Assembly (NCBI GenBank): GCA_964619465.1
Contig: CAZUES010000015.1
Location: 29,101 to 93,100 of the forward strand
Reading direction: 5' to 3'
DNA length: 64,000 nucleotides
From: an uncultured Gemmatimonas sp.
Lineage (GTDB): Bacteria; Gemmatimonadota; Gemmatimonadetes; Gemmatimonadales; GWC2-71-9
The notes beneath the pieces were generated by a model that saw only the letters and a program-made list of their open reading frames with translations, did no database searches and was not told the origin of the DNA. The translations under genes and the position numbers were made by a program. This document shows, piece after piece, positions 5,587-14,216 of the stretch (the stretch's first letter is position 1; each line of letters opens with the position of its first letter).

Positions 5587-8500
5587 TCAGCGTAACGTTG
5601 GAACACTAGAAAACGTTGGAACACTAGAATAGGTGGAGTTCCAATCCATGTCTGTTTTCACCCCTGTCCAGGCGTTCAACGGACCGACCAGCATCTGGGT
5701 CGCGACGGTCTGACCGCTGATCACGATGCGCCAGTCACTCTCCGGAGACATACCGGTGTAATCCCGAATCATCGGCATCCCATCGACCGCGACACCACAT
5801 GTCGCGTCGGGAAAGATCTGCAGACGGATTCGATACCATGTCCCGCTCACAAGATGTTCGGCGCCGGCGGCTATGAGTCGTCGTGAACCCACATGGAGCG
5901 AGTAACGCTGCATCTGCGCAACGCCCTCACCTATCGGAGTCAGGAATCCGCATGCAGCCGCTCCGATGGCACCGGAATGGTTGGTGTCCGGGTACACTCC
6001 CATCTCGAGTAGTAAACGTTGCCATTTCGGTCGTTCGATCGGCGTCGAAACAAGTGCCTCGAAGCCGAACGCAGGGGCAGATACCGCTCCAATGCTGACA
6101 ATCCCGCTCGAGAACGTCTGGTCACCGCCGTTGAGGAGGGCAGGAGTCCCGTCAGGAGCAGCCACGATGGAAGGTCGAGGATCACCGTACGATGCCCATC
6201 GGCTGGCCAGCGACTCTTCCCACGCTTCGCCGAAAACATGTTCCACTCGATTCGAGGTGATCGTGATCTCGGTCGACGCTTGCCGCCACCCGCCAAGCGA
6301 GACATCAATTCGCACCGTGCCCTCTTCGCGGGGGAAGAGCTCGCCGGTGCTCGAATCGATCGTTGCAATAGTCGAATCGTGAGTCGCCCACCTGAGCGCA
6401 GTCGAGGTAAGTGCCACGCTTCGACCGAGCACATCGCGCCCGGAGGCACGAAGACGATGACTCACGCCGACGACAGCGGAGATTCCTCGGGGTTCGATCG
6501 TCACGTCGTGGATGTACTGTCGGCGCTCTGCCGGAACAAACCATCCGGTCACTGTGCCCGCAGCTGAAGGTGTTACGAGGGAGCGGTCGCCAGGCCGCTC
6601 CCTGTCGATCACCAATCGTACCCGATCCGGTGAGCTGATAGCGACCGAAGAGGCCAGCGTTGATCCGGAGCTGGCTTTCTCCAGTATGACCGGGAGGGGC
6701 CGCCCGAGCGCCAGCGAATTTCCTGGGATATGCCATGTCGCCATTGGTGACTGTACATCGGTGGACATACTACTGAGCATGACCTGATCAGGGTTCCGCC
6801 AGCCGTGGTGACGCCACCGCTCGTCCAGTGTGGACGGTGCGCAACGTTCCACGAGCCCATCGAATGTCACGATGCACGGCCGTACGACTCCCGTCATCGT
6901 TTCGATACGATCAAAGGCAATGTGCGTCCCGTCAGGAGACCATGCCGGGCCCGTATCGTAGTCCGGTCCACGAGTCAGCTGCCGAATGACACCCGTTTCG
7001 AGGTCCAGGACGCCGAGATCGCTGTCTTCGTCTCCTCTCGGTGTCCATCGGGCCGTTGCGAAGACCAGGAACTTGCCATCCGGAGACCAATCAGGGCTGA
7101 TATCGTCCCCCGGCGTGGCCGTGAGCCGGCGGACTCGGCCGCTGCGCTCCAGCAGCATCAGGTCGATGCCGCCGGAGTCGGCGGTGATCTCGTCATATGC
7201 CAAGGCCCCCTCCGGATGGAGCGCCATCGTATAGTACGGCTTCCGACCCGGCGGAAGCCGGCCAAGCACACGACCTTCCCGCAAGGAGATCGTATCGGGG
7301 CCGGACCATCGATCCTCGCGAATCGGAAAACCATAGATTCGAACCCGGTCGCCCGGCGCAGGGGTTCCCTCGGCCAGCAGCAGGACGGCCGTCGGCGGGA
7401 CTTCGGGCCTGGTGAGCATGAACCAGGAAACCGCCGCGACGAGGAGCAGCACCAGCCCGGCAACCAATGCTCGGCGGGAGCTGCTCGAATACGTCATGCG
7501 TCGTGCCCCACCCAGCGATCGGATCAGCTCCGATTGCTCTCGCGGCGTTGCCGATGGCCCCAACGCACTGCGGGCAAGATCCCGGAGCGGAACCGTGCTT
7601 CCGTGCCGGCGAACCGTTTCGACTTGGGCTCGAAACAGGGCGACGAGTCGGTCTCGCTGCTGGGCTTCCCTGAAATGTGCAGCGGCTCGCTGAAAGGCCG
7701 TGCGGTCGTTCTCGAGCCGGGTGGCCAACCACTCGCCCAATATCGTGTGGGCATCCCGATTTTCGTCAGCGGAGATGGTTCGGAGCACGGTAGCTGCTAT
7801 TTCGTCGTGCGTTGCCTGAAGCAGCGGTCCCGCACGCACGATCAGACCATCCTTCTCGAGCTGATGGAGTACGTATCGCGCATCGGCATCGACGGACGAG
7901 AGGACATCCAAAGGCAGGGGCGCTTGCGCTGCGCTGATCAGCAACAGCAGGTTCCGGGCGCGAGCTGGAAGTCCCTCGATGCGGAGCCGAAGCGGATCGT
8001 CGTCACCGATGTCCCGTAGCGCGGCAGCGGGATTGGTCCACGTCCAACCGGTCTCATCGATCCGCAACCTGCCCTGTTGCATGGCCAGATGCAGCAACTC
8101 CAGCACGAGTAAGGGCGACCCCTTCGATTTGTGGTGCAGCATCTCGGCCAGCGCCGTCACCTCATACGCTCCAACATCTGCCCCCAGGCTCGACAGCATG
8201 CCGAGCAAGGCGTCCGTCGAGAGCGGGGTGAGCTCGACGACCTGTGTCGCGGCGGATGCCGGCAGTGTGCGCGCGACCGGGCGAGCCGTCGTCACGATCA
8301 GTACACGCTCGCTTTTGAGGCGGTTGAGGAGACCGTTGATGATCTGGAGGGACTGGTCGTCCGCCCAATGGAGATCGTCGAGCAGGATGGCCAGCGGTGT
8401 CTCGCCAGCCACGCATGAGACCAGCTCTGTGATTGCCTGGATCAGGGTCGCCGTCGATCCGATTCCCGAACGACCCCCGCCGTGGTCCCGACGATGGGCG

Positions 8501-9708
8501 GAAAGGGAGGGAGCAAGCGCGCTCAGCTCGGCAAGGGTGCCTGGCGCGATGGCGCGCCAGCCGGGAAGCGTGAGCGCTTCAACGGTGTCACTGAGGAAGG
8601 CGTGATCGACCTCGCGTTCTCCGGGAATCGCGCTGACCATGGCGATGACGCCACGTGAAGGGCGGAGCCGATTGGCCAGTTCGTGGAGCAGGCGCGTCTT
8701 GCCGAGCCCCGCCGGTGCGGTGAGGTGCACGTGCATGGCGCGAGTGTCCTGGCAACGCTGCCAGGCATCCAGAAGCAGGGCAAACTCGCGCTCCCGGCCG
8801 ACCAGCTCGGTCACGAGCAGGTCGCGTGGGGAGTCCGGAGAGCGGAGCGGAACCACGGCCTCGGATTGGTGGATCTTGGCGATGAGGCGTTCGGTGGCCG
8901 GCTCGATGTTTTCGCCGCCGCCGGCGAGCCGGGTGAGGAGCTGGTCGGCCTCGAGCAGGGCTCGGCTGCGGTTGCCGGCGGTTAGCAGAGCTTCGAGGAG
9001 GAGGCACCAGGCGGCTTGCGATTCGGCGCAGCAGTCGCGGGCCCTGTCGGCAAGTCGGACCGCTTCCTTGGTCTCGGGCCGGTCGAGTGCCTGCCGAACT
9101 GCCGCAGTTGCGGAGCGGAGGAAAGCGAGCTTGAGACGTTCCCGTTCCAGGTCAGCCCATTGCTCGAAGCCAGCAGCCCCGGGCGCAGCATATCCGGGAA
9201 AGAACGCCCCCATATATAGGTCGACGGCATCGGCATCGCGACCCTCCTGTATGGCAGTGAGAAAGAGGTCCCGATCCGACGTGAGGTCGAGAACGAGCGC
9301 CACAGCGCTGTCTTGGCCTCGCGACGCGACGGGGTCCTGTCCCAGGTCCCCTCGAAGCCGGTACAGCAGCTGACGGAGCGCTCCCTGAGCAGGCCTGGGC
9401 CCGCTGTTGTTCCAGAATTTGTCGATGAGCTCGTCGCGGCTGGCTTCGCGATTGGGGAGGCAATGCAGATAGGTGATAAGGGCTAAGCCCTTACCCGCCG
9501 CTAAAATCTCGACCGGTTCCTGTCCGAATTCTGGACGGTACCCGAGGAGGCGTGTCGATCCTAGCGTAACGAGCTTTAACCTCCCGTCGACCGTGACCGG
9601 GGGCTTGCCAGGAGGGCTTGAAGCCATCGTGTGACGCTCGTGTGATGGTGACCGTTGCAGGTTGTTCGAAACCGTTGGGGTGCCCCGCAGATCGGTGCCT
9701 TGCCCCAC
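5587..9708 (-). CDS. Membrane-spanning multidomain regulator: SARP-type winged-helix + BTAD, STAND/AAA_16 ATPase, TM helix, TolB-like PD40 propeller, Big_2, LamG-like domain
   Basis: 1373-aa ORF; the start is more likely MASSPPGKPP at 9627. The N-terminus is a SARP-like wHTH/BTAD (SRDELIDKFW...GALRQLLYRLR...QWADLERERL). Walker A is LTAPAGLGKTRLL (GLGKT = 8695..8709) and Walker B is AILLDDLHWAD. The TM helix is RRALVAGLVLLLVAAVSWFMLT (about 7411..7476). PD40 motifs are DISPDWSPDGKFLVF and GPAWSPDGTHIAF, followed by an Ig-like segment and a jelly-roll-like C-terminus. Confidence 0.8.
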   Translation of the reverse strand: MGQGTDLRGTPTVSNNLQRSPSHERHTMASSPPGKPPVTVDGRLKLVTLGSTRLLGYRPEFGQEPVEILAAGKGLALITYLHCLPNREASRDELIDKFWNNSGPRPAQGALRQLLYRLRGDLGQDPVASRGQDSAVALVLDLTSDRDLFLTAIQEGRDADAVDLYMGAFFPGYAAPGAAGFEQWADLERERLKLAFLRSATAAVRQALDRPETKEAVRLADRARDCCAESQAAWCLLLEALLTAGNRSRALLEADQLLTRLAGGGENIEPATERLIAKIHQSEAVVPLRSPDSPRDLLVTELVGREREFALLLDAWQRCQDTRAMHVHLTAPAGLGKTRLLHELANRLRPSRGVIAMVSAIPGEREVDHAFLSDTVEALTLPGWRAIAPGTLAELSALAPSLSAHRRDHGGGRSGIGSTATLIQAITELVSCVAGETPLAILLDDLHWADDQSLQIINGLLNRLKSERVLIVTTARPVARTLPASAATQVVELTPLSTDALLGMLSSLGADVGAYEVTALAEMLHHKSKGSPLLVLELLHLAMQQGRLRIDETGWTWTNPAAALRDIGDDDPLRLRIEGLPARARNLLLLISAAQAPLPLDVLSSVDADARYVLHQLEKDGLIVRAGPLLQATHDEIAATVLRTISADENRDAHTILGEWLATRLENDRTAFQRAAAHFREAQQRDRLVALFRAQVETVRRHGSTVPLRDLARSALGPSATPREQSELIRSLGGARRMTYSSSSRRALVAGLVLLLVAAVSWFMLTRPEVPPTAVLLLAEGTPAPGDRVRIYGFPIREDRWSGPDTISLREGRVLGRLPPGRKPYYTMALHPEGALAYDEITADSGGIDLMLLERSGRVRRLTATPGDDISPDWSPDGKFLVFATARWTPRGDEDSDLGVLDLETGVIRQLTRGPDYDTGPAWSPDGTHIAFDRIETMTGVVRPCIVTFDGLVERCAPSTLDERWRHHGWRNPDQVMLSSMSTDVQSPMATWHIPGNSLALGRPLPVILEKASSGSTLASSVAISSPDRVRLVIDRERPGDRSLVTPSAAGTVTGWFVPAERRQYIHDVTIEPRGISAVVGVSHRLRASGRDVLGRSVALTSTALRWATHDSTIATIDSSTGELFPREEGTVRIDVSLGGWRQASTEITITSNRVEHVFGEAWEESLASRWASYGDPRPSIVAAPDGTPALLNGGDQTFSSGIVSIGAVSAPAFGFEALVSTPIERPKWQRLLLEMGVYPDTNHSGAIGAAACGFLTPIGEGVAQMQRYSLHVGSRRLIAAGAEHLVSGTWYRIRLQIFPDATCGVAVDGMPMIRDYTGMSPESDWRIVISGQTVATQMLVGPLNAWTGVKTDMDWNSTYSSVPTFSSVPTLR
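5594..5629. repeat. Perfect 18-bp tandem direct repeat (AACGTTGGAACACTAGAA x2)
   Basis: Read directly: unit 1 at 5594..5611 and unit 2 at 5612..5629. It is AT-rich compared with its surroundings. An inverted copy of the TTGGAAC core (GTTCCAA) lies at 5638..5644. Confidence 0.95.
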
Positions 9709-10058
9709 CCGTCACACGGAATGGTCCAAACCTTCAGTCGGCCTTCGCACCGCTGAAGCTACGGATCAGTGGCTGAGGGGGCAAGCACCTTTGCTGTTCC
9801 GCTCGTCGCCCGAGATCGCGAGGGAATTCGTCGTTCGCCGTGCGCTGATGGCGTTGGGTACGCTCATGCTGGCTGCTGCAGCTGCGTATGGGCGGACTAG
9901 CGCCAGGGCCGAGGAGGTACTGCCCCGATACCTCGGTTGCCTAGTTGGTTCAGTCGAAGTTGGCCGATCCATGAGCATTCGGGAAACGGAGCGGTCTTGT
10001 GATATGTCATAGTGGCAAGCACGAGTAGTCGAGCATGCTCATGATCATGGAGGAGCAC

Positions 10059-10850
10059 ATGAAGCGAGTTGTTAGTGGGATTGCTATGGTTGCGGTAGTC
10101 GGATGCACTCAGGTGCCGATCAACACCACTCCAACGGCGACCCGACAAACGCAGTCGGTGAAAGTGCCCGAACTGACGGCGGCCGTTAAAGGACAGGATT
10201 CCCAGGAGAAGGATGGTATCCGTGTCACCGTTACGCCCGAGCCGTTCAGACTCGAGCGCACTTACGAGAGCACGTTTCGGGCGGTACGCCGTACGATAGA
10301 ACTCGGTCAATATCGTCCCGTGCAGCGGCGAGATGTGGTAACACCCGACCTCCAACCTGAATCCCTGATATTCAAGGTGAGAATCGCCAACGGACTCGGT
10401 CGAGTAATCCGACTTGCAGGTTCAGTCGTCTCGTTCCAGATGGCAGGCAAGAACGTTTCGGTTCCGCAGGAAGACTATGCGGAGTTTCTGAGCGGGATCG
10501 TCCTGCCTCGACAGGAAACGGAGCTGACCTTGAGAGGCCCATATCTCGGGAGCTTTGCCGGACCGGATCTCAACGGCCTGGCCGGTGACACTGCGACCGT
10601 TGCTCTCCTGCTCTACGATGTCGTTACCGCGACGGACAACGCCGGCAATCCCACGAAGCGTGCCAACTTTGAATACTACTATCGGCTCCGTCTGGTGCCG
10701 CGCCCGGACAGCGTCGTTGCCACAATTACCTCACTCTCCGTGCCGGTGGCCTGGTGGAACCACATTGCTACACAACAGCAAGGTGACGTCAGTCGCTGGG
10801 TCAGAGTGCCCCAACTGGAATGCCTGCCCAACTGCGGGAACGAACAGTAG
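10059..10850 (+). CDS. Lipoprotein of unknown function
   Basis: ORF 10035..10850. I chose the start MKRVVSGIAMVAVVGC at 10059 because GGAGGAG lies just upstream and there is a lipobox (VVGC). I recognised no domain. Local GC is lower. Confidence 0.7.
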   Translation: MKRVVSGIAMVAVVGCTQVPINTTPTATRQTQSVKVPELTAAVKGQDSQEKDGIRVTVTPEPFRLERTYESTFRAVRRTIELGQYRPVQRRDVVTPDLQPESLIFKVRIANGLGRVIRLAGSVVSFQMAGKNVSVPQEDYAEFLSGIVLPRQETELTLRGPYLGSFAGPDLNGLAGDTATVALLLYDVVTATDNAGNPTKRANFEYYYRLRLVPRPDSVVATITSLSVPVAWWNHIATQQQGDVSRWVRVPQLECLPNCGNEQ

Positions 10851-10917
10851 GCGTAACCACAATCCGAGAGCCCAGGAATGATCGACTGACCCTCACTATC
10901 TGAAAGCGAGAGATGCG

Positions 10918-11421
10918 ATGATCTGCCCGGCATGCACCAAAGAGATCTCCGCCGACGGTTACTTCTGCCAGTGGTGCGCGGCGTACGTCCCCGCGCAGCA
11001 AGTCGGCCACAAGGCCAGTGTGTTCCGGCGCTTCGTTGCGTTTGCCCTCGATCCTGTGATCGCACTGGTGCTGTACTTCCTAGGGCTCGGCCTGATCGGT
11101 GGCCTGCTCGGACCGGACTTAGGTGCCGTCGCGGCAGTGCTCCTGCCGATTGCGTATTTCATTTGGTATCTGAGTCTGATGCGGAAAGGACTGAGCCCGG
11201 GTAAACAGTTGCTGGGTCTCCAGGTCGTAAGTCAGCAGACGGGCGCAATTCCAGGGTTCGCAACGATGTTCGTCCGGGAGATCGTCGGCCGTTTCCTGAG
11301 TGGATTGGTGTTTGGGATCGGTTATCTCTGGGCGCTGTTCGATAAGAACGCACAAGCGTGGCACGACAAGCTTGCGGGGACTGTCGTCGTTGCCGTCGCC
11401 AAGAGTCCGACCGCAACCTGA
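10918..11421 (+). CDS. Zinc-ribbon + RDD family membrane protein
   Basis: The N-terminus has CPAC-x12-CQWC. The RDD-type membrane core contains FRRFVAFALDPVIAL and the terminal motif WHDKLAGTVVV. Confidence 0.8.
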   Translation: MICPACTKEISADGYFCQWCAAYVPAQQVGHKASVFRRFVAFALDPVIALVLYFLGLGLIGGLLGPDLGAVAAVLLPIAYFIWYLSLMRKGLSPGKQLLGLQVVSQQTGAIPGFATMFVREIVGRFLSGLVFGIGYLWALFDKNAQAWHDKLAGTVVVAVAKSPTAT

Positions 11422-11501
11422 ATCTGCCGCATGGCCGACAGTGTTCGCCACCCCGCATTGGAAGTGCGGAAACGGGGCTCGGGCTCACAGGAGGAGGAAC
11501 G

Positions 11502-14216
11502 ATGGCGTGCAATCGGGACCACGGTCACGCTTTTCGCTGTGGGGGCGGAGCACATTGGTATAGGCTTGCTTCGTGGATCGTGCTGTGTTGCATGGTCGCC
11601 GGGTGCAAGCGCACCGACGACATCGCTGGCGGGCCAGCGACGGGAACGCTCAGCGGGATCGTCGTCGCGGACGCTGAGACTCCGCTTGCCGATGCAACTG
11701 TAGAAGTCGTCGGTTACCCAGCCATTGTCTCACAAAGGACCGATGGCACTGGAGCGTTCTCGCTCGGCGTCGTGCCCGTAGGGATATATGATCTACGAGT
11801 GACTGCGCCGCCAGGGTACGAAGCTCCCCCAAGTGCCGCCACACCGTCCCACGATAGGAGGGTATGGACCGTTTCCCAGGTTCCGGTCCGTCCGTCGCTG
11901 GTAACTAACGTCACGATATCAGCGCTAGGTGTTCGTGAACGGACTCGCATCCTGCAGGCCGGCACGGTCGATACGGTAGTGCTGGCGGACGGAGGTATCG
12001 CTACTGTAGCTGTTCCTCCAGGTGCCTCCGTATCGGCAACTGTGGCGAGTGCGCCCTACCCGGTTGTGGTCATCGCCAGGGATCTCTTCCCCGTCGCAAA
12101 GACGATCCGTATCCGACTTGCACCCGTCGCCAACCGAGCAGCCATGTCCCAACATGGTCGCAGATACAGTACTCAGTCCGCCGATAACGGGCTGAATATT
12201 TCCCTTTCGATTGGGTCGCTACGGGTGAACTCGTCACAGCCCGTGCGTGCGGTACTGACGACGCTCGCGGACCCGGATGTCCTACTTTGGGCCACCGCGA
12301 CTAGCACGGTTGTCCAGACTCACGGCCAGACTTGGACGGTTCCGCTGACCGCTTTCTCACTGTCGGTAGCGGAACCCGTCGATATCTCTGTAACGCTGAT
12401 TGAATCTGCTGGTGGCACTCCGTGCCCATTGCCGCTGCATTCTCTCCGGCCACTCGACGAGACTCCGCTGAACGGTCGAATCCCGCTAATTCTCGTTCAT
12501 GGTTGGCAGCCGGAGATGGTAAGTTGCAACCAGTGGCTCAAGTTCATGTCCCAGTCGGATCCCTTCGATGCGATGATTGCGGAGGTTGTATCGGACGTCC
12601 CAGTGGCAGCGCAATACAAGCCATACATCTTTCGCTATGCGACCTACGAGCGTGTGATGATCGCGAGCGACGCCCTGGCAATAGAAGTCGAAAAAAACGG
12701 GCTCGTGAGACCTGTCCTGGTCGGGCACAGCATGGGCGGGCTGGTCGGGCGCGGCGTCATGGCCTTACGCGGCCCAGACGCGCTGCGTGGGCTGATCACG
12801 CTAGGTACGCCCCATGAAGGAACGCCGCTTGCCAACAGGATTATCGACGGCGGCAAGACGGATTGCGTGCTAGCCAGACTCCAACTACTCGGTGGCGAGT
12901 TGGCTGCGGTACTTGCGCCATCATCCGGCGGACTTGCAGATTTGCGTACCGATAGCGAGCTCATTGCCCTTCTACGCAACGAAGCGACCCGACCACGCAA
13001 TCGAGTGTTTGCTATCGCTGGAACAAACGATGCGACCTTGGACCTAATGTACGGACGGTTCGCTTGCGTACTCCGAGAACTGGGAGCCGGAAAAGGCGAT
13101 GGGGTCGTTCCAACAAGCAGTGCGGCACCGCCGTGGGCTACGCTGCGTATCGAGCGTGACGGCCATGATCACACGGAGATGGCGAAGGGAACGCGGGATG
13201 GCAAGCTTTTCGACGATGTTCGAGCGGCACTGATCGGCATCGCGGCATGCGGCACGCCGCCCTCCCGACCTACCAGCAATGCGTTCCCGCTCTCGGCCAG
13301 TATCGACCGTCTCGGCAACGACACGGTGAACATCATTGTTAATCCGATCCATGTAAACGGTAGCCCAATCGTCGGGCTTACGTCAGCCAACTTTGAAGTC
13401 ATCGAGAACGACTGTAGCCGACCGTTCGTCACCACGACAGGGACGGCCCCCGTTCCAGTCGACGTGGTCTTCGTACAGGATCTGTCTTCATCGATGCGTT
13501 CTGCTATTGCGGGGGTACGCAACAGCGTCATCGCGTTTGCCCGAGATCTCGCGGAGCGCAACCTTGAGGTTCGGATGGCGTCGGTCGGATTCTCAGGACC
13601 TGGAAACATTCCGTCAACGCCGCCAACCTCGCGAGATGAGTTTCTCGGTCCGGTCCAGGATTTTACAACACCGGCAGTGTTTCAGCAGCATGTTGCCAGT
13701 CAGTGGCGGGAAGTCGGCGGCGCTGATCCTCCGGAAAATGGGCTCGAAGCAATCGAATACGCTCAGCACTCACTGTCCTGGCGACGAGAAGCCGCCCGGG
13801 TGTATATCCTGATTACAGATGCATCGCTGCATACTAAGAATACGAGCTGCAACGGACGCGGACCGTGTACGGATCATGACCTAGTCAGCATTATGGCGCT
13901 GGTAGGTAGTTCGGCAACGGTCCATGCCGTTGCGTCGTCAAGGAGCGAAGAGCGGACGACTAGCGGTGGACTCGATCCGTGGCTGCTCGCCGATGCGTTT
14001 GGTGGGCGAAAGCTGACGCTCGGTACGGGCGGCACGGTCGATTTGCCCTCTCTGGGAATCGCTAGTGTGATCGGTCAGCTAACACGACTGACCTTCAAGT
14101 CACTTTCCAAGGAGAAAGCGTGGCACGATCTGCGAGTTCGTGTGACGCTTCCTGATGGCCGAATTGCGGAAATCGCTCCAGGAGTCATCCAATACTCGCC
14201 ACTACCTGGGCAATGA
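11502..14216 (+). CDS. Lipoprotein fusing a CarboxypepD_reg-like domain, an alpha/beta-hydrolase (lipase/PGAP1-like) and a C-terminal vWA domain
   Basis: ORF 11358..14216, trimmed to the ATG at 11502 (AGGAGGAGG upstream; signal/lipobox LCCMVAGC). The CarboxypepD_reg-like segment is GTLSGIVVADAETPLADATVEVVG...GIYDLRV. The hydrolase shows LILVHGW, the nucleophile elbow VGHSMGG (Ser codon 12729..12731) and LGTPHEGTP. The vWA MIDAS motif is VFVQDLSSSM (13479..13496). Confidence 0.8.
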   Translation: MACNRDHGHAFRCGGGAHWYRLASWIVLCCMVAGCKRTDDIAGGPATGTLSGIVVADAETPLADATVEVVGYPAIVSQRTDGTGAFSLGVVPVGIYDLRVTAPPGYEAPPSAATPSHDRRVWTVSQVPVRPSLVTNVTISALGVRERTRILQAGTVDTVVLADGGIATVAVPPGASVSATVASAPYPVVVIARDLFPVAKTIRIRLAPVANRAAMSQHGRRYSTQSADNGLNISLSIGSLRVNSSQPVRAVLTTLADPDVLLWATATSTVVQTHGQTWTVPLTAFSLSVAEPVDISVTLIESAGGTPCPLPLHSLRPLDETPLNGRIPLILVHGWQPEMVSCNQWLKFMSQSDPFDAMIAEVVSDVPVAAQYKPYIFRYATYERVMIASDALAIEVEKNGLVRPVLVGHSMGGLVGRGVMALRGPDALRGLITLGTPHEGTPLANRIIDGGKTDCVLARLQLLGGELAAVLAPSSGGLADLRTDSELIALLRNEATRPRNRVFAIAGTNDATLDLMYGRFACVLRELGAGKGDGVVPTSSAAPPWATLRIERDGHDHTEMAKGTRDGKLFDDVRAALIGIAACGTPPSRPTSNAFPLSASIDRLGNDTVNIIVNPIHVNGSPIVGLTSANFEVIENDCSRPFVTTTGTAPVPVDVVFVQDLSSSMRSAIAGVRNSVIAFARDLAERNLEVRMASVGFSGPGNIPSTPPTSRDEFLGPVQDFTTPAVFQQHVASQWREVGGADPPENGLEAIEYAQHSLSWRREAARVYILITDASLHTKNTSCNGRGPCTDHDLVSIMALVGSSATVHAVASSRSEERTTSGGLDPWLLADAFGGRKLTLGTGGTVDLPSLGIASVIGQLTRLTFKSLSKEKAWHDLRVRVTLPDGRIAEIAPGVIQYSPLPGQ

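Follow-up and report, generated by a model that had tools for sequence, protein, structure and literature searches.

A SARP–STAND protein family of Gemmatimonadota with a transmembrane helix and a large predicted periplasmic sensor

The window analysed here, a 64,000-nucleotide stretch of DNA from an uncultured Gemmatimonas sp., carries a minus-strand gene (5587..9627, or to 9708 with an earlier start) for a single protein that joins a SARP DNA-binding module and a STAND NTPase to a periplasmic ectodomain through one transmembrane (TM) helix. We show that its domain order, N-in/C-out topology and nucleotide-switch motifs are conserved across a large family. This architecture and topology had been proposed from the sequence alone, and the proposal is very probably correct, being supported by profiles, conservation, two structural models, fold matches, charge bias and Cys pairs. 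We cautiously favor the view that the protein is a membrane-tethered one-component transcription regulator in which a periplasmic signal gates an ATP switch. This mechanism is inferred; no experiment exists on any member of the family.

Results

Gene and domain layout

The open reading frame (5587..9708, minus strand) gives 1373 aa from a GTG start and 1346 aa from an ATG at 9627, in agreement with the predicted single polypeptide of 1346-1373 aa. The ATG is likely the true start. The public gene call (P0002) is the 1346-aa product, and homologues mostly start 14 codons ahead of a conserved LxTLG core, immediately 3' of a repeat element. Moreover, this family-conserved element abuts the ATG, which supports the assignment. 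Features are listed below, with residues numbered on the 1373-aa frame.

9628..9652, minus strand: candidate operator, direct repeats TCACACGA-N3-TCACACGA (period 11 bp) that stop 2 nt short of the ATG
9625..9627, minus strand: probable start codon ATG (residue 28; product of 1346 aa)
9295..9579, minus strand: OmpR-type winged-helix DNA-binding domain (residues 44-138; Trans_reg_C, AfsR profile and fold matches)
8857..9276, minus strand: BTAD, bacterial transcriptional activation domain (residues 145-284), forming the SARP module with the winged helix
8284..8811, minus strand: STAND P-loop nucleotide-binding domain, AAA_16 (residues 300-475)
7774..8283, minus strand: NOD helical domain and winged-helix domain (residues 476-645; invariant columns, PH0952 and MalT matches)
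7498..7773, minus strand: helical arm (residues 646-737, about 90 aa; helices in the AF2 model)
7405..7482, minus strand: single transmembrane helix (residues 743-768; also a helix in the AF2 model)
6523..7389, minus strand: six-bladed TolB-like (PD40) beta-propeller (residues 774-1062; PD40, TolB profile and Foldseek)
6256..6507, minus strand: Big_2-type Ig-like domain (residues 1068-1151; beta-sandwich in the model)
5665..6243, minus strand: family-specific C-terminal beta-sandwich (residues 1156-1348; all-beta, high pLDDT)
5590..5664, minus strand: non-conserved, low-confidence C-terminal tail (residues 1349-1373)

The tail contains a perfect 18-bp tandem duplication (5594-5629, encoding SSVPTF/SSVPTL), and its last 8 residues have pLDDT below 50 in the ectodomain AlphaFold model. 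No conservation of this tail was found in the family alignments.

The cytoplasmic SARP module and STAND switch

The predicted winged helix plus BTAD is present, although the winged helix of the window protein is below threshold on its own: Trans_reg_C matches residues 72-126 with 17.4 bits, under the Pfam cut-off of 26.2. The assignment rests on the family, in which 18 of 24 members match Trans_reg_C at E<=0.01 (best 2.7e-7), on a profile match to the AfsR SARP (8hvr_I, E 6.5e-5) and on a Foldseek match of the SARP part to AfsR 8k60 (TM 0.65-0.67, rmsd 4.4, 24-25% identity). The recognition helix (around residues 105-120, ALRQLLYRLR) is among the most conserved stretches of the family alignments. 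BTAD exceeds its Pfam cut-off (residues 160-279, 23.3 bits against 22.1) and is found in 19 of 24 members; the region is all-helical in the AF2 model, with fold matches to AfsR and EmbR.

All nucleotide-switch motifs of the NOD are intact. AAA_16 matches residues 301-472 (E 1e-20), and the predicted Walker A (GLGKT, 334-338) and Walker B (LLDDLHWAD, 442-450, with LLDD at 442-445) are accompanied by a sensor-1-like Arg476 within VTTARP. Residues G334, G336, K337, D444, D445 and R476 are invariant in sets of 24 and 51 homologues. The GxP motif (KGSPLL, 529-534) and an MHD-like His634-Asp635 of the winged-helix domain (WHD) are likewise invariant, so that the full motif set is preserved in the 51 sequences. 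The family profile aligns to the STAND protein PH0952 (6mfv), including its VHD (E 1.3e-5). In addition, Foldseek matched the cytoplasmic AF2 model (pLDDT 89.2; inter-domain contacts and PAE were not read) to PH0952 6mfv (E 1.4e-9) and MalT 8bob_C (TM 0.70), with further matches to EmbR, Apaf/CED-4 and plant NLRs. The helical arm, also as predicted, occupies the place of the arm in AfsR and MalT, as judged with the AfsR domain map (PMC10936776), and no cytoplasmic TPR sensor lies downstream. It ends in a conserved juxtamembrane R-x-G-x5-R, in which R737 is invariant.

Membrane topology

A single TM helix had been placed at about 7411..7476, and we find its hydrophobic core at 7414..7470 (residues 747-765; mean Kyte-Doolittle value 2.6 over 19 residues). 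This is the only strong hydrophobic peak of the protein, and it was seen in 24 of 24 full-length homologues tested. For 51 segments spanning the TM helix and ectodomain, the top-scoring 19-residue stretch was taken from the ~60 residues at the start of each segment; its N side carries on average 3.06 K/R residues and its C side 1.43, with net charges of +2.9 and 0, respectively. The ectodomain has an even number of Cys residues (4 or 6) in 45 of these 51, and the two conserved Cys pairs are found in the external part only. One conserved helix, a positive-inside bias and Cys pairs confined to the ectodomain support, at the level of sequence, an N-in/C-out topology.

The periplasmic ectodomain

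The predicted ~600 external residues with a PD40 propeller and an Ig-like domain were recovered by profiles, AlphaFold and Foldseek. The ectodomain model (mean pLDDT 88.1, pTM 0.84) shows 24 strands in six blades, then the Ig-like domain and a beta-sandwich of ~190 aa. For the propeller, Pfam finds two PD40 repeats (E 2.6e-14), the TolB profile gives E 1e-21 and TolB is the top Foldseek match (E 1e-14), with TolB-Pal and colicin complexes among the matches; a Cys945-Cys956 pair is invariant. The Big_2 match is weak in the window protein (E 0.24) and is found in 9 of 24 members (best 4e-5), and profile matches of this domain include LigA/LigB and teneurin-like Ig domains. In the C-terminal sandwich, Cys1253 and Cys1304 form a near-invariant pair and the motifs NNGDG and FPDGRCGVAxDG are conserved; neither Pfam nor PDB profiles gave a significant match to this domain. 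The original prediction had called this end LamG or jelly-roll-like. The beta-sandwich held, but the LamG name is not supported by profiles: Laminin_G_2 matches just 2 of 55 members (E 1e-3), and the assignment remains an unproven possibility. The same genome also has a separate PD40 open frame of 415 aa (C14), about the size of TolB.

A family restricted to Gemmatimonadota

More than 140 species-level genomes encode this architecture (142 relatives), all from Gemmatimonadota; among sampled genomes of this phylum, the family is present in 44 of 301, and in 27 of 127 genera. At 50% identity, the C-terminal domain forms 1358 clusters at E 1e-3, 1004 at 1e-10 and 514 at 1e-30. Within the genomes searched, this is a large, unstudied family, restricted to one phylum and conserved in architecture. 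A STAND domain inserted between the DNA-binding and transmembrane-sensor parts of a protein had been judged unusual, and the full-text literature searched contained nothing on such an arrangement; the protein is, however, no singleton. All other SARP-AAA_16 proteins found in the search are cytoplasmic. Some relatives (P0030, L089, L090 and L091) have the SARP module, the TM helix and the same ectodomain without a NOD, indicating that the NOD is an optional module of a tethered regulator.

The output side is conserved above the sensor side, as mean pairwise identity is 44.9% for the SARP module and 39.0% for the NOD, against 32.7% for the sandwich, 28.9% for Big_2 and 26.8% for the propeller. 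Tandem paralogues also diverge most in the ectodomain. Pfam, NCBIfam and profile searches agreed with the proposed architecture. The neighborhood analysis of homologues found no conserved neighbor genes at the family loci, and so gives no pointer to a regulon or ligand.

A candidate operator at the start codon

The repeat in the window, which has an extra GGTCAC upstream, is a variant of a family element, GTCA-N7-GTCA-N1-3-ATG. In about half of the family loci, a GTCA-N7-GTCA direct repeat with 11-bp spacing lies directly against the start codon, and spacing-11 repeats are in excess (z=7.2); a position matrix was also built for the element. When 2.37 Mb were searched with the pattern, 27 of 48 matches fell at family starts, against 0.03 expected. 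Because repeat variants co-vary with the recognition helix, we propose this element, new here, as a possible operator of the regulator itself, although the link is confounded by phylogeny and there are no binding data. Strict forms showed no enrichment elsewhere in the window protein's own genome. Relative to the start codon, the element spans -2 to -22. In SARP activation, the -10 element follows 8 bp after the 3' repeat (PMC10936776), so this position does not fit that geometry; no TSS is known, and a search for a sigma-70 consensus found none. The location may point to autorepression rather than to classical -35 activation.

Discussion

In AfsR, the SARP domain is inhibited by the NOD and TPR, ATP relieves this inhibition, and SARP dimers bind 11-bp direct repeats (PMC10936776). 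The window protein follows the AfsR-type large-SARP plan, with the cytoplasmic TPR sensor exchanged for a TM helix that leads to a periplasmic sensor of ~600 aa, and we propose its mechanism by analogy. At rest, an ADP-bound closed NOD and the arm would keep the SARP module inactive. Binding of a periplasmic or envelope ligand to the ectodomain may then change how the single TM helix and juxtamembrane arm pack or cluster, whereupon the NOD would swap ADP for ATP and free the SARP domains, with oligomerization being optional. The freed domains would sit side by side on direct repeats spaced by 11 bp while still in the membrane, as in ToxR and CadC. A probable target would be the start region of the gene itself, where GTCA-N7-GTCA abuts the ATG; beyond it, the regulon is unknown. 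To our knowledge, there is no precedent for a single TM helix gating a NOD. The original prediction invoked nucleotide-dependent oligomerization driven by an extracytoplasmic ligand, which remains inference only. Since ATP relieves autoinhibition of AfsR, the nearest relative studied so far, without changing its oligomeric state (PMC10936776), de-repression is at least as likely.

Other explanations must be considered. Regulated proteolysis, in which a signal sensed by the ectodomain would trigger site-1 and then site-2 cleavage and release a soluble SARP-NOD-arm fragment acting like AfsR, is modelled on RsgI/RseA-type anti-sigma factors or on CadC/TcpP turnover; the NOD would respond to ATP only after release. 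Substrates of regulated intramembrane proteolysis usually have this single-pass type II layout with a large folded ectodomain, the cytoplasmic part on its own is a complete AfsR minus the TPR, and we infer that a bulky 700-aa cytoplasmic part may make it sterically awkward to bring chromosomal DNA to the membrane. However, no conserved protease gene adjoins the family loci, Pfam shows neither an autoproteolytic (SEAL-like) motif nor a known cleavage motif, ToxR and CadC-type regulators are active while membrane-bound (PMC6320335), and the short SARP-TM-ectodomain relatives resemble ordinary ToxR-like tethered regulators. We consider this reading unlikely. Equally doubtful is a coincidence gate or anchor, in which the NOD would respond, independently of the ectodomain, to something in the cytoplasm such as the ATP/ADP ratio, a small molecule or an arm-bound partner, the ectodomain being a second input or merely serving envelope localization, for example by docking to peptidoglycan or to a partner in the outer membrane, like TolB on Pal. 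In its favor, ATP itself is the activating ligand of AfsR in vitro (PMC10936776), TolB-type propellers are protein or peptide docking modules, as in the TolB-Pal and colicin complexes matched by Foldseek, and the NOD and arm are better conserved than the ectodomain. On the other hand, the ectodomain keeps invariant surface-type motifs and disulfides over hundreds of clusters, 600 conserved residues are more than a mere anchor would require, and in the NOD-less SARP regulators the same ectodomain must be the sole input.

It is very unlikely that the protein is not a transcription factor at all and is instead a membrane STAND for defense or envelope scaffolding, with a SARP-like N-terminus degenerated into a protein-interaction module. 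In its favor, many STAND NTPases of bacteria serve as anti-phage sensors (PMC13581612), and the winged helix scores under the Pfam cut-off. Against this, PADLOC gives no match, there is no effector domain, the recognition helix is highly conserved, the AfsR DNA-binding domain is matched in sequence and fold, and a cognate-looking direct repeat lies at the gene's own start.

Our preferred reading, a tethered regulator with a periplasmically gated ATP switch, combines traits of several known systems. AfsR and other large SARPs of Streptomyces share the order of OmpR-type winged helix, BTAD, AAA_16/STAND NOD and helical arm, and likely also the logic of NOD autoinhibition, relief by ATP and binding to 11-bp direct repeats. 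Unlike the window protein, AfsR has a TPR sensor in place of the TM helix and 600-aa periplasmic ectodomain, an arm of 159 aa instead of ~92 aa, and a site that overlaps the -35 element rather than a candidate site abutting the start codon. Moreover, AfsR belongs to Actinomycetota, whereas the window family is found in Gemmatimonadota without biosynthetic-cluster context. ToxR, CadC and TcpP likewise place an OmpR-family winged helix at the cytoplasmic N-terminus and a sensor at the periplasmic C-terminus, joined by a single TM helix, and the window protein presumably stays tethered during DNA binding as they do. However, they have a short linker from the DNA-binding domain to the TM helix and no NTPase, where the window protein has the NOD and arm, ~460 residues next to the BTAD, and their periplasmic domains are unrelated to its ectodomain; the true ToxR-like counterparts within the family are the NOD-less relatives. 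MalT and PH0952, STAND regulators from a bacterium and an archaeon, share the NOD fold and its motifs (Walker A and B, sensor-1 Arg, GxP and WHD His), but they use a cytoplasmic helical-repeat (SUPR/TPR) sensor touching the NOD and a C-terminal LuxR DNA-binding domain, whereas the window protein has its large C-terminal domain across the membrane and an N-terminal SARP. Finally, TolB of the Tol-Pal system has the same periplasmic six-bladed PD40 beta-propeller. The window protein differs from it in reaching only 48.9 bits against the TIGR02800 cut-off of 343, in lacking the N-terminal alpha/beta domain of TolB, and in having its propeller fused to a TM regulator.

The gene and its domains

The gene lies at 5587..9708 on the minus strand as an open frame of 1373 codons from a GTG start, or of 1346 codons from an ATG at 9627. 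The shorter form is the one found in the public protein collection (P0002); residues are numbered here in the 1373-aa frame. The original prediction had placed a P-loop NTPase in this protein, followed by a single transmembrane (TM) helix. Its motif positions held, with GLGKT at residues 334-338 and LLDDLHWAD at 442-450, and so did its hydrophobic stretch, which spans residues 747-765 (window 7414..7470).

Domains of the window protein
Residues 72-126: Trans_reg_C (Pfam, 17.4 bits, under the cut-off of 26.2)
Residues 160-279: BTAD, PF03704 (Pfam, 23.3 bits, just over the gathering score of 22.1)
Residues 301-472: AAA_16 (Pfam, E 1e-20)
From residue 859: PD40, two repeats (Pfam, E 2.6e-14)
Residues 1069-1136: Big_2 (Pfam, E 0.24, weak)
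Residues 1068-1151: Ig-like sandwich (AlphaFold model)
Residues 1156-1348: all-beta domain of about 190 residues (AlphaFold model)

NCBIfam gave only partial matches to the window protein, namely a TolB propeller and the STAND part of a kinase/cyclase fusion. The TolB equivalog TIGR02800 was not reached (48.9 bits against a cut-off of 343.15), the match being confined to residues 855-932. A gene fusion or assembly artefact can be ruled out, because more than 60 independent assemblies carry the same full-length frame.

The last 12 codons of the ORF (SSVPTF/SSVPTL) consist of a perfect 18-bp tandem duplication (TTCTAGTGTTCCAACGTT twice; window 5594-5629, minus strand). Since this tail lacks conservation across the family and is modelled with a low pLDDT, the duplication is probably a recent slippage event without functional weight.

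A conserved family in Gemmatimonadota

When 5.8 billion proteins were searched with a word index, about 24 full-length relatives of 1245-1373 aa emerged (30-59% identity, 91-97% coverage). They originate exclusively from metagenomes or from Gemmatimonadales/Gemmatimonadaceae MAGs, and they are named merely "AAA family ATPase" or "SARP family activator". With each species represented by a single genome, 142 relatives were recovered; the best 78 loci all belonged to Gemmatimonadota except for two short contigs that had been binned outside it. When this phylum was sampled evenly, the TM-plus-ectodomain part was present in 44 of 301 genomes (27 of 127 genera), nearly always within a frame of 1330-1400 codons; three of the six genomes of the window's own genus carried it. 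A profile of the last domain, searched against 1.84 billion representative clusters (50% identity), matched 1358, 1004 and 514 clusters at E 1e-3, 1e-10 and 1e-30, respectively. About half of the top 150 matches were 1300-1400 aa long, and the remainder look like N-terminally truncated fragments at contig ends.

Calls that are weak in the window protein become strong at the family level. Across 24 members, Pfam detected AAA_16 and PD40 in all, BTAD in 19 (best E 5e-12), Trans_reg_C in 18 (best E 2.7e-7) and Big_2 in 9. Conservation is graded along the chain, and a fall in identity from output to sensor is the pattern expected for a conserved output coupled to a diversifying sensor.

Mean pairwise identity by region
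SARP: 44.9%
NOD and arm: 39.0%
Beta-sandwich: 32.7%
Big_2: 28.9%
Propeller: 26.8%

The window's genome has a single copy of the family, together with two ordinary cytoplasmic SARP-STAND paralogues. Some Gemmatimonadales genomes have tandem or nearby second copies (L014:9905-18234; L055:2251-10469; L066:2537-6628, minus strand). These paralogues are closer to each other in the SARP (44-65% identity) and the NOD (37-58%) than in the ectodomain (25-50%), a pattern suggestive of duplication with later divergence of the sensor.

The cytoplasmic SARP and STAND modules

A profile built from 51 cytoplasmic segments found two matches in the PDB: the SARP of AfsR (8hvr_I, E 6.5e-5), aligned over the entire winged helix-turn-helix (wHTH) and BTAD at profile positions 9-237, and the archaeal STAND protein PH0952 (6mfv, E 1.3e-5). 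The same alignment was fed to AlphaFold, and the resulting model had a mean pLDDT of 89.2 and a pTM of 0.67. With this model, Foldseek retrieved PH0952 (E 1.4e-9), MalT (8bob_C, TM 0.70) and AfsR in transcription complexes (8k60, 8hvr; TM 0.65-0.67, rmsd 4.4 Å, 24-25% identity). Further matches included EmbR, CED-4, Apaf-like proteins, Avs3 and plant NLRs. Two features that mark a SARP are present. An OmpR-type winged helix is supported by Trans_reg_C in 18 of 24 members, by the profile and fold matches to AfsR and by the fold of EmbR, and a BTAD directly after it is supported by PF03704, which exceeds its gathering score in the window protein and is present in 19 of 24 members.

The sequence and fold features of a STAND switch are likewise present. 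These comprise a P-loop nucleotide-binding domain with Walker A (GxxGxGK[ST]) and Walker B (hhhhDD) motifs, and the helical and winged-helix domains of the NOD with a sensor-1 Arg, a GxP motif and a winged-helix His. Invariant in both the 24 and the 51 sequences are G334, G336 and K337 of Walker A, D444 and D445 of Walker B, R476 in VTTARP after the next strand, G530-P532 of the GxP motif in KGSPLL, and His634-Asp635 in the winged-helix subdomain. His634 aligns to the HD of PH0952, and we take it to be the ADP-contacting His of the "MHD" motif known from the STAND literature; the roles of R476, the GxP motif and His634 are all taken to follow that literature. The hallmarks of a working STAND switch are all intact. 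This is shown for the motifs, whereas nucleotide exchange and oligomerisation are inferred.

One usual STAND feature is missing, that is, a C-terminal repeat sensor (TPR, SUPR, WD40 or LRR) in the compartment of the NOD, as the propeller lies beyond the membrane. The arm that follows the winged-helix subdomain comprises only about 92 residues of helices (646-737) and ends in a conserved R-x-G-x5-R; no TPR was found after it in the window protein.

Membrane topology and ectodomain

All 24 full-length homologues tested have one Kyte-Doolittle peak at the same position (19-mer mean 1.5-2.9). The 12 residues before the helix contain on average 3.06 Lys/Arg (net charge +2.9), and the 12 residues after it contain 1.43 (net 0). 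Past the helix there are two conserved Cys pairs, C945/C956, which is invariant, and C1253/C1304, which is nearly so, and the number of Cys is even (4 or 6) in 45 of 51 ectodomains. PD40 propellers are typically periplasmic. Taken together, the hydrophobic peak, the charge bias, the Cys pairs, the cytoplasmic nature of P-loop and DNA-binding domains and the usual location of PD40 fix an N-in/C-out topology as far as this can be inferred from sequence alone.

The AlphaFold model of the ectodomain (pLDDT 88.1, pTM 0.84) shows, in order, the TM helix, a propeller, an Ig-like sandwich, an all-beta domain and a disordered tail. The propeller (residues 774-1062) has 24 strands, which we interpret as six four-stranded blades. 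The best Foldseek matches were TolB structures (E about 1e-14, TM 0.5-0.56 on the target), and the family profile matched TolB (E 1e-21) as well as the Big_2-like Ig domains of LigA/LigB and teneurin-like proteins.

The last domain bears the conserved motifs that are most specific to the family (W..FG.P.P, NNGDG and FPDGRCGVAxDG). The original prediction had described it as a jelly-roll-like, "LamG" end. An all-beta sandwich is indeed seen in the model, but the LamG label remains a guess because no significant Pfam or PDB profile match supports it. Pfam gave no match to this domain in the window protein and Laminin_G_2 in only 2 of 55 members (E 1e-3), and the PDB profile search returned nothing below E 0.08. 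In Foldseek searches with the whole ectodomain, propeller matches dominated and the last domain stayed unnamed.

Relatives with other architectures

The same phylum contains relatives of 877-928 aa in which a SARP is followed by a TM helix at about residues 270-320 and a related ectodomain, with no AAA_16.

Relatives without a NOD
P0030 (protein search)
L089:1465-4128
L090:1137-3887
L091:712-3495, minus strand

P0030 aligned to query residues 832-1351, through Big_2 and the beta-sandwich. The TM-plus-ectodomain profile (646 positions) matched the other three at positions 85-515 (L089), 325-627 (L090) and 319-627 (L091), and all three carry BTAD and PD40. Judging by their sequence only, we infer that these relatives are plain ToxR/CadC-like tethered regulators. 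The long family differs from them by the NOD and arm lying between the DNA-binding module and the membrane, a difference that may reflect either an insertion or a loss. The long architecture recurs in L093, a protein of 1258 aa that is more distantly related and comes from a different family of the class.

Two metagenomic proteins from the protein search show a further arrangement. P0041 (1571 aa) combines a SARP, a Ser/Thr kinase, an AAA_16 STAND and SBP_bac_5, and P0077 (1278 aa) has the same architecture minus the SARP. Neither has a hydrophobic segment, which rules them out as further membrane-spanning STANDs. In these two proteins, a normally periplasmic solute-binding fold probably serves as a cytoplasmic STAND sensor.

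A direct repeat at the start codon

In the 400 nt before the conserved core of 57 loci, near-identical heptamers at 11-nt spacing occurred 145 times, against 66±11 in shuffles (z 7.2). The source of this signal is one element, nGTCA-N6-CGTCA(N)ATG, in which 1-3 nt separate the second repeat from the start codon; in most loci this codon lies 14 codons before the LxTLG core. In the 2.37 Mb of locus sequence, the pattern GT[CT][ACT]-N7-GT[CT][ACT]-N1-3-ATG was matched 48 times, and 27 of these occurrences are at family start codons, where 0.03 would be expected. Start codons of the window's genome do not in general stand in such a context. The window's copy is as follows:

9628-9646: TCACACGA-gcg-TCACACGA-tg, direct repeat adjoining the ATG start

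The repeat varies with the recognition helix. Helices of the form ...LRQTLWYLR pair with GTCA, those of the form ...[FH]HLRR pair with GTTA (L039, L041, L056), and the ...x-R-L-R helices of the window subclade (window, L011, L012, L015, L018) pair with CGT(G/C)ACA. This association is confounded by phylogeny. At the starts of the NOD-less SARP-TM-ectodomain relatives, the GTCA repeat is absent and the recognition helix is different. SARP dimers occupy 11-bp direct repeats side by side (PMC10936776), and an equal layout, built from TGTCA-like units, is known from the Pho boxes of OmpR/PhoB-family proteins. Read most simply, the family protein would bind its own start region, and the element is a candidate cognate operator, for which there are no binding data.

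In classical SARP activation, 8 bp separate the 3' repeat from the -10 element downstream of it (PMC10936776). The position of the element here, -2 to -22 from the ATG, fits repression better than that geometry, with the caveat that the transcription start site is unknown. A leaderless transcript or a downstream start does not account for this position, as in most loci no other in-frame start codon is available from the ATG to the conserved core. Neither a sigma-70 consensus nor an intrinsic terminator was found adjoining the gene. An ECF-like AAC...CGTC promoter, read by eye, was rejected, the spacing being 13 or 24 nt against the 16-17 needed. Family loci show a weak A/T-rich signal some 27 to 33 nt ahead of the ATG (A at -33/-32, TA at -28/-27), and AAC often stands 13 nt ahead of the first repeat. 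The signal could belong to an unrecognised promoter type; its spacing misfits both the ECF and the sigma-70 consensus.

A regulon search with a position weight matrix of the element was too weak against chance in the 4.37-Mb genome. Strict element patterns were not enriched there, and besides the gene itself only one further site has the subclade-specific TCACA-N6-TCACA. Among the paralogues of this genome, C6, a 1097-aa cytoplasmic SARP-STAND, has CGTCAGAAATCATTCAC, an imperfect CGTCA-N6-ATTCA, 10-27 nt upstream of its ATG. This 11-bp-spaced repeat may be a coincidence. No repeat was seen at C28, the other SARP-STAND paralogue.

Genomic context

The sdh operon lies downstream of the gene, and divergent genes for a lipoprotein, an RDD protein (Zn-ribbon-RDD) and a lipase-vWA protein lie upstream. 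When 13 window neighbours were compared with 78 loci by tblastn, almost nothing was found. Of the adjacent genes checked (sdh genes, lipoprotein, RDD and the 952-aa lipase/vWA), the sole strong match was an RDD homologue in L015, a homologous locus in another genome, with 68% identity and about 5 kb upstream. On all-against-all clustering of 773 flank ORFs, even the most widespread neighbour family was limited to at most 7 of the 78 loci. The window neighbours do not travel with the family, and they offer no operon partner or regulon hint.

The divergent lipoprotein, Zn-ribbon-RDD and 952-aa lipase/vWA genes are spanned by a stretch of lower GC content (window 10001-14000; 0.59 against about 0.65 around it).

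Discussion

The results of our analysis establish the anatomy and topology of the protein, its intact switch motifs, family-wide selection, a modular tie to NOD-less tethered SARPs and a candidate cognate operator. How these parts work together is a matter of inference. By analogy with AfsR, the closed NOD and arm would autoinhibit the SARP. A periplasmic ligand would then alter the TM helix and arm so as to permit ATP binding, and the freed SARP domains, possibly clustered, may bind the direct repeats at the membrane. The original prediction held that the architecture implies nucleotide-dependent oligomerisation. Because ATP relieves inhibition of AfsR without a change of oligomeric state (PMC10936776), we infer, in the absence of purified-protein data, that oligomerisation is one option and not a necessity.

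Other explanations can be envisaged. Proteolysis could release a soluble AfsR-like fragment, or the NOD could be under independent cytoplasmic control and the ectodomain could serve as a second input or an anchor; we regard both as unlikely. A non-transcriptional role, such as defence, is even less plausible, as no PADLOC match was obtained for the window protein at E<=0.01. Avs and similar anti-phage STANDs carry an effector domain, and Pfam found no nuclease, protease, TIR or similar effector domain in the window protein; the criteria for an anti-phage STAND are not met.

Beyond the ligand-gated, tethered regulator that we favor, a bolder reading is possible, namely that the protein is a true transmembrane NOD-like receptor. 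An envelope-derived ligand on the periplasmic propeller and sandwich would act through the TM helix and juxtamembrane arm to cause ADP-to-ATP exchange directly, and an assembly in the plane of the membrane would hold promoter DNA at the inner membrane through the 11-bp GTCA repeats. If true, this would represent a third transmembrane signalling route beside histidine or Ser/Thr kinases and regulated proteolysis, and the first STAND protein with sensor and switch in separate compartments.

STAND/NLR switches are familiar as intracellular sensors whose sensor domain touches the NOD, and membrane one-component regulators as simple tethered DNA binders. The present family merges the two. If the ectodomain controls the NOD, it would show that an ATP-driven switch can be gated across a bilayer by one helix, which bears on receptor biology generally, and would open a first way into envelope sensing in Gemmatimonadota, a soil phylum that is abundant and little studied. 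Ectodomains with and without a NOD form a natural comparison pair. Moreover, the GTCA repeat at the gene's own start is a concrete DNA probe and hundreds of sequence variants are available, making the idea directly testable.

As regards the claim of novelty in the original prediction, the architecture is undescribed in the literature searched and belongs to a conserved Gemmatimonadota family. Our full-text search turned up neither a STAND lying between a DNA-binding domain and a TM sensor nor any BTAD-TM-TolB protein, and in a 2026 survey of bacterial STANDs, TM appears solely as a class of effector. Compared with known systems, the protein shares with TolB the propeller fold, the match covering the propeller only. 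It shares the plan of AfsR, which consists of SARP (1-270), NOD (271-618), arm (619-777) and TPR (778-993) (PMC10936776), up to the arm. Like ToxR and CadC, it has a cytoplasmic N-terminal wHTH, a single TM helix and a periplasmic C-terminal sensor. In contrast, the short linker to the membrane without an NTPase that is typical of those regulators is found in the NOD-less relatives and not in the window protein, where about 460 residues including a complete NOD intervene. The protein combines two known kinds, the large SARP/STAND regulators and the ToxR-like tethered regulators, in a mechanism that is inferred, still untested and potentially new.
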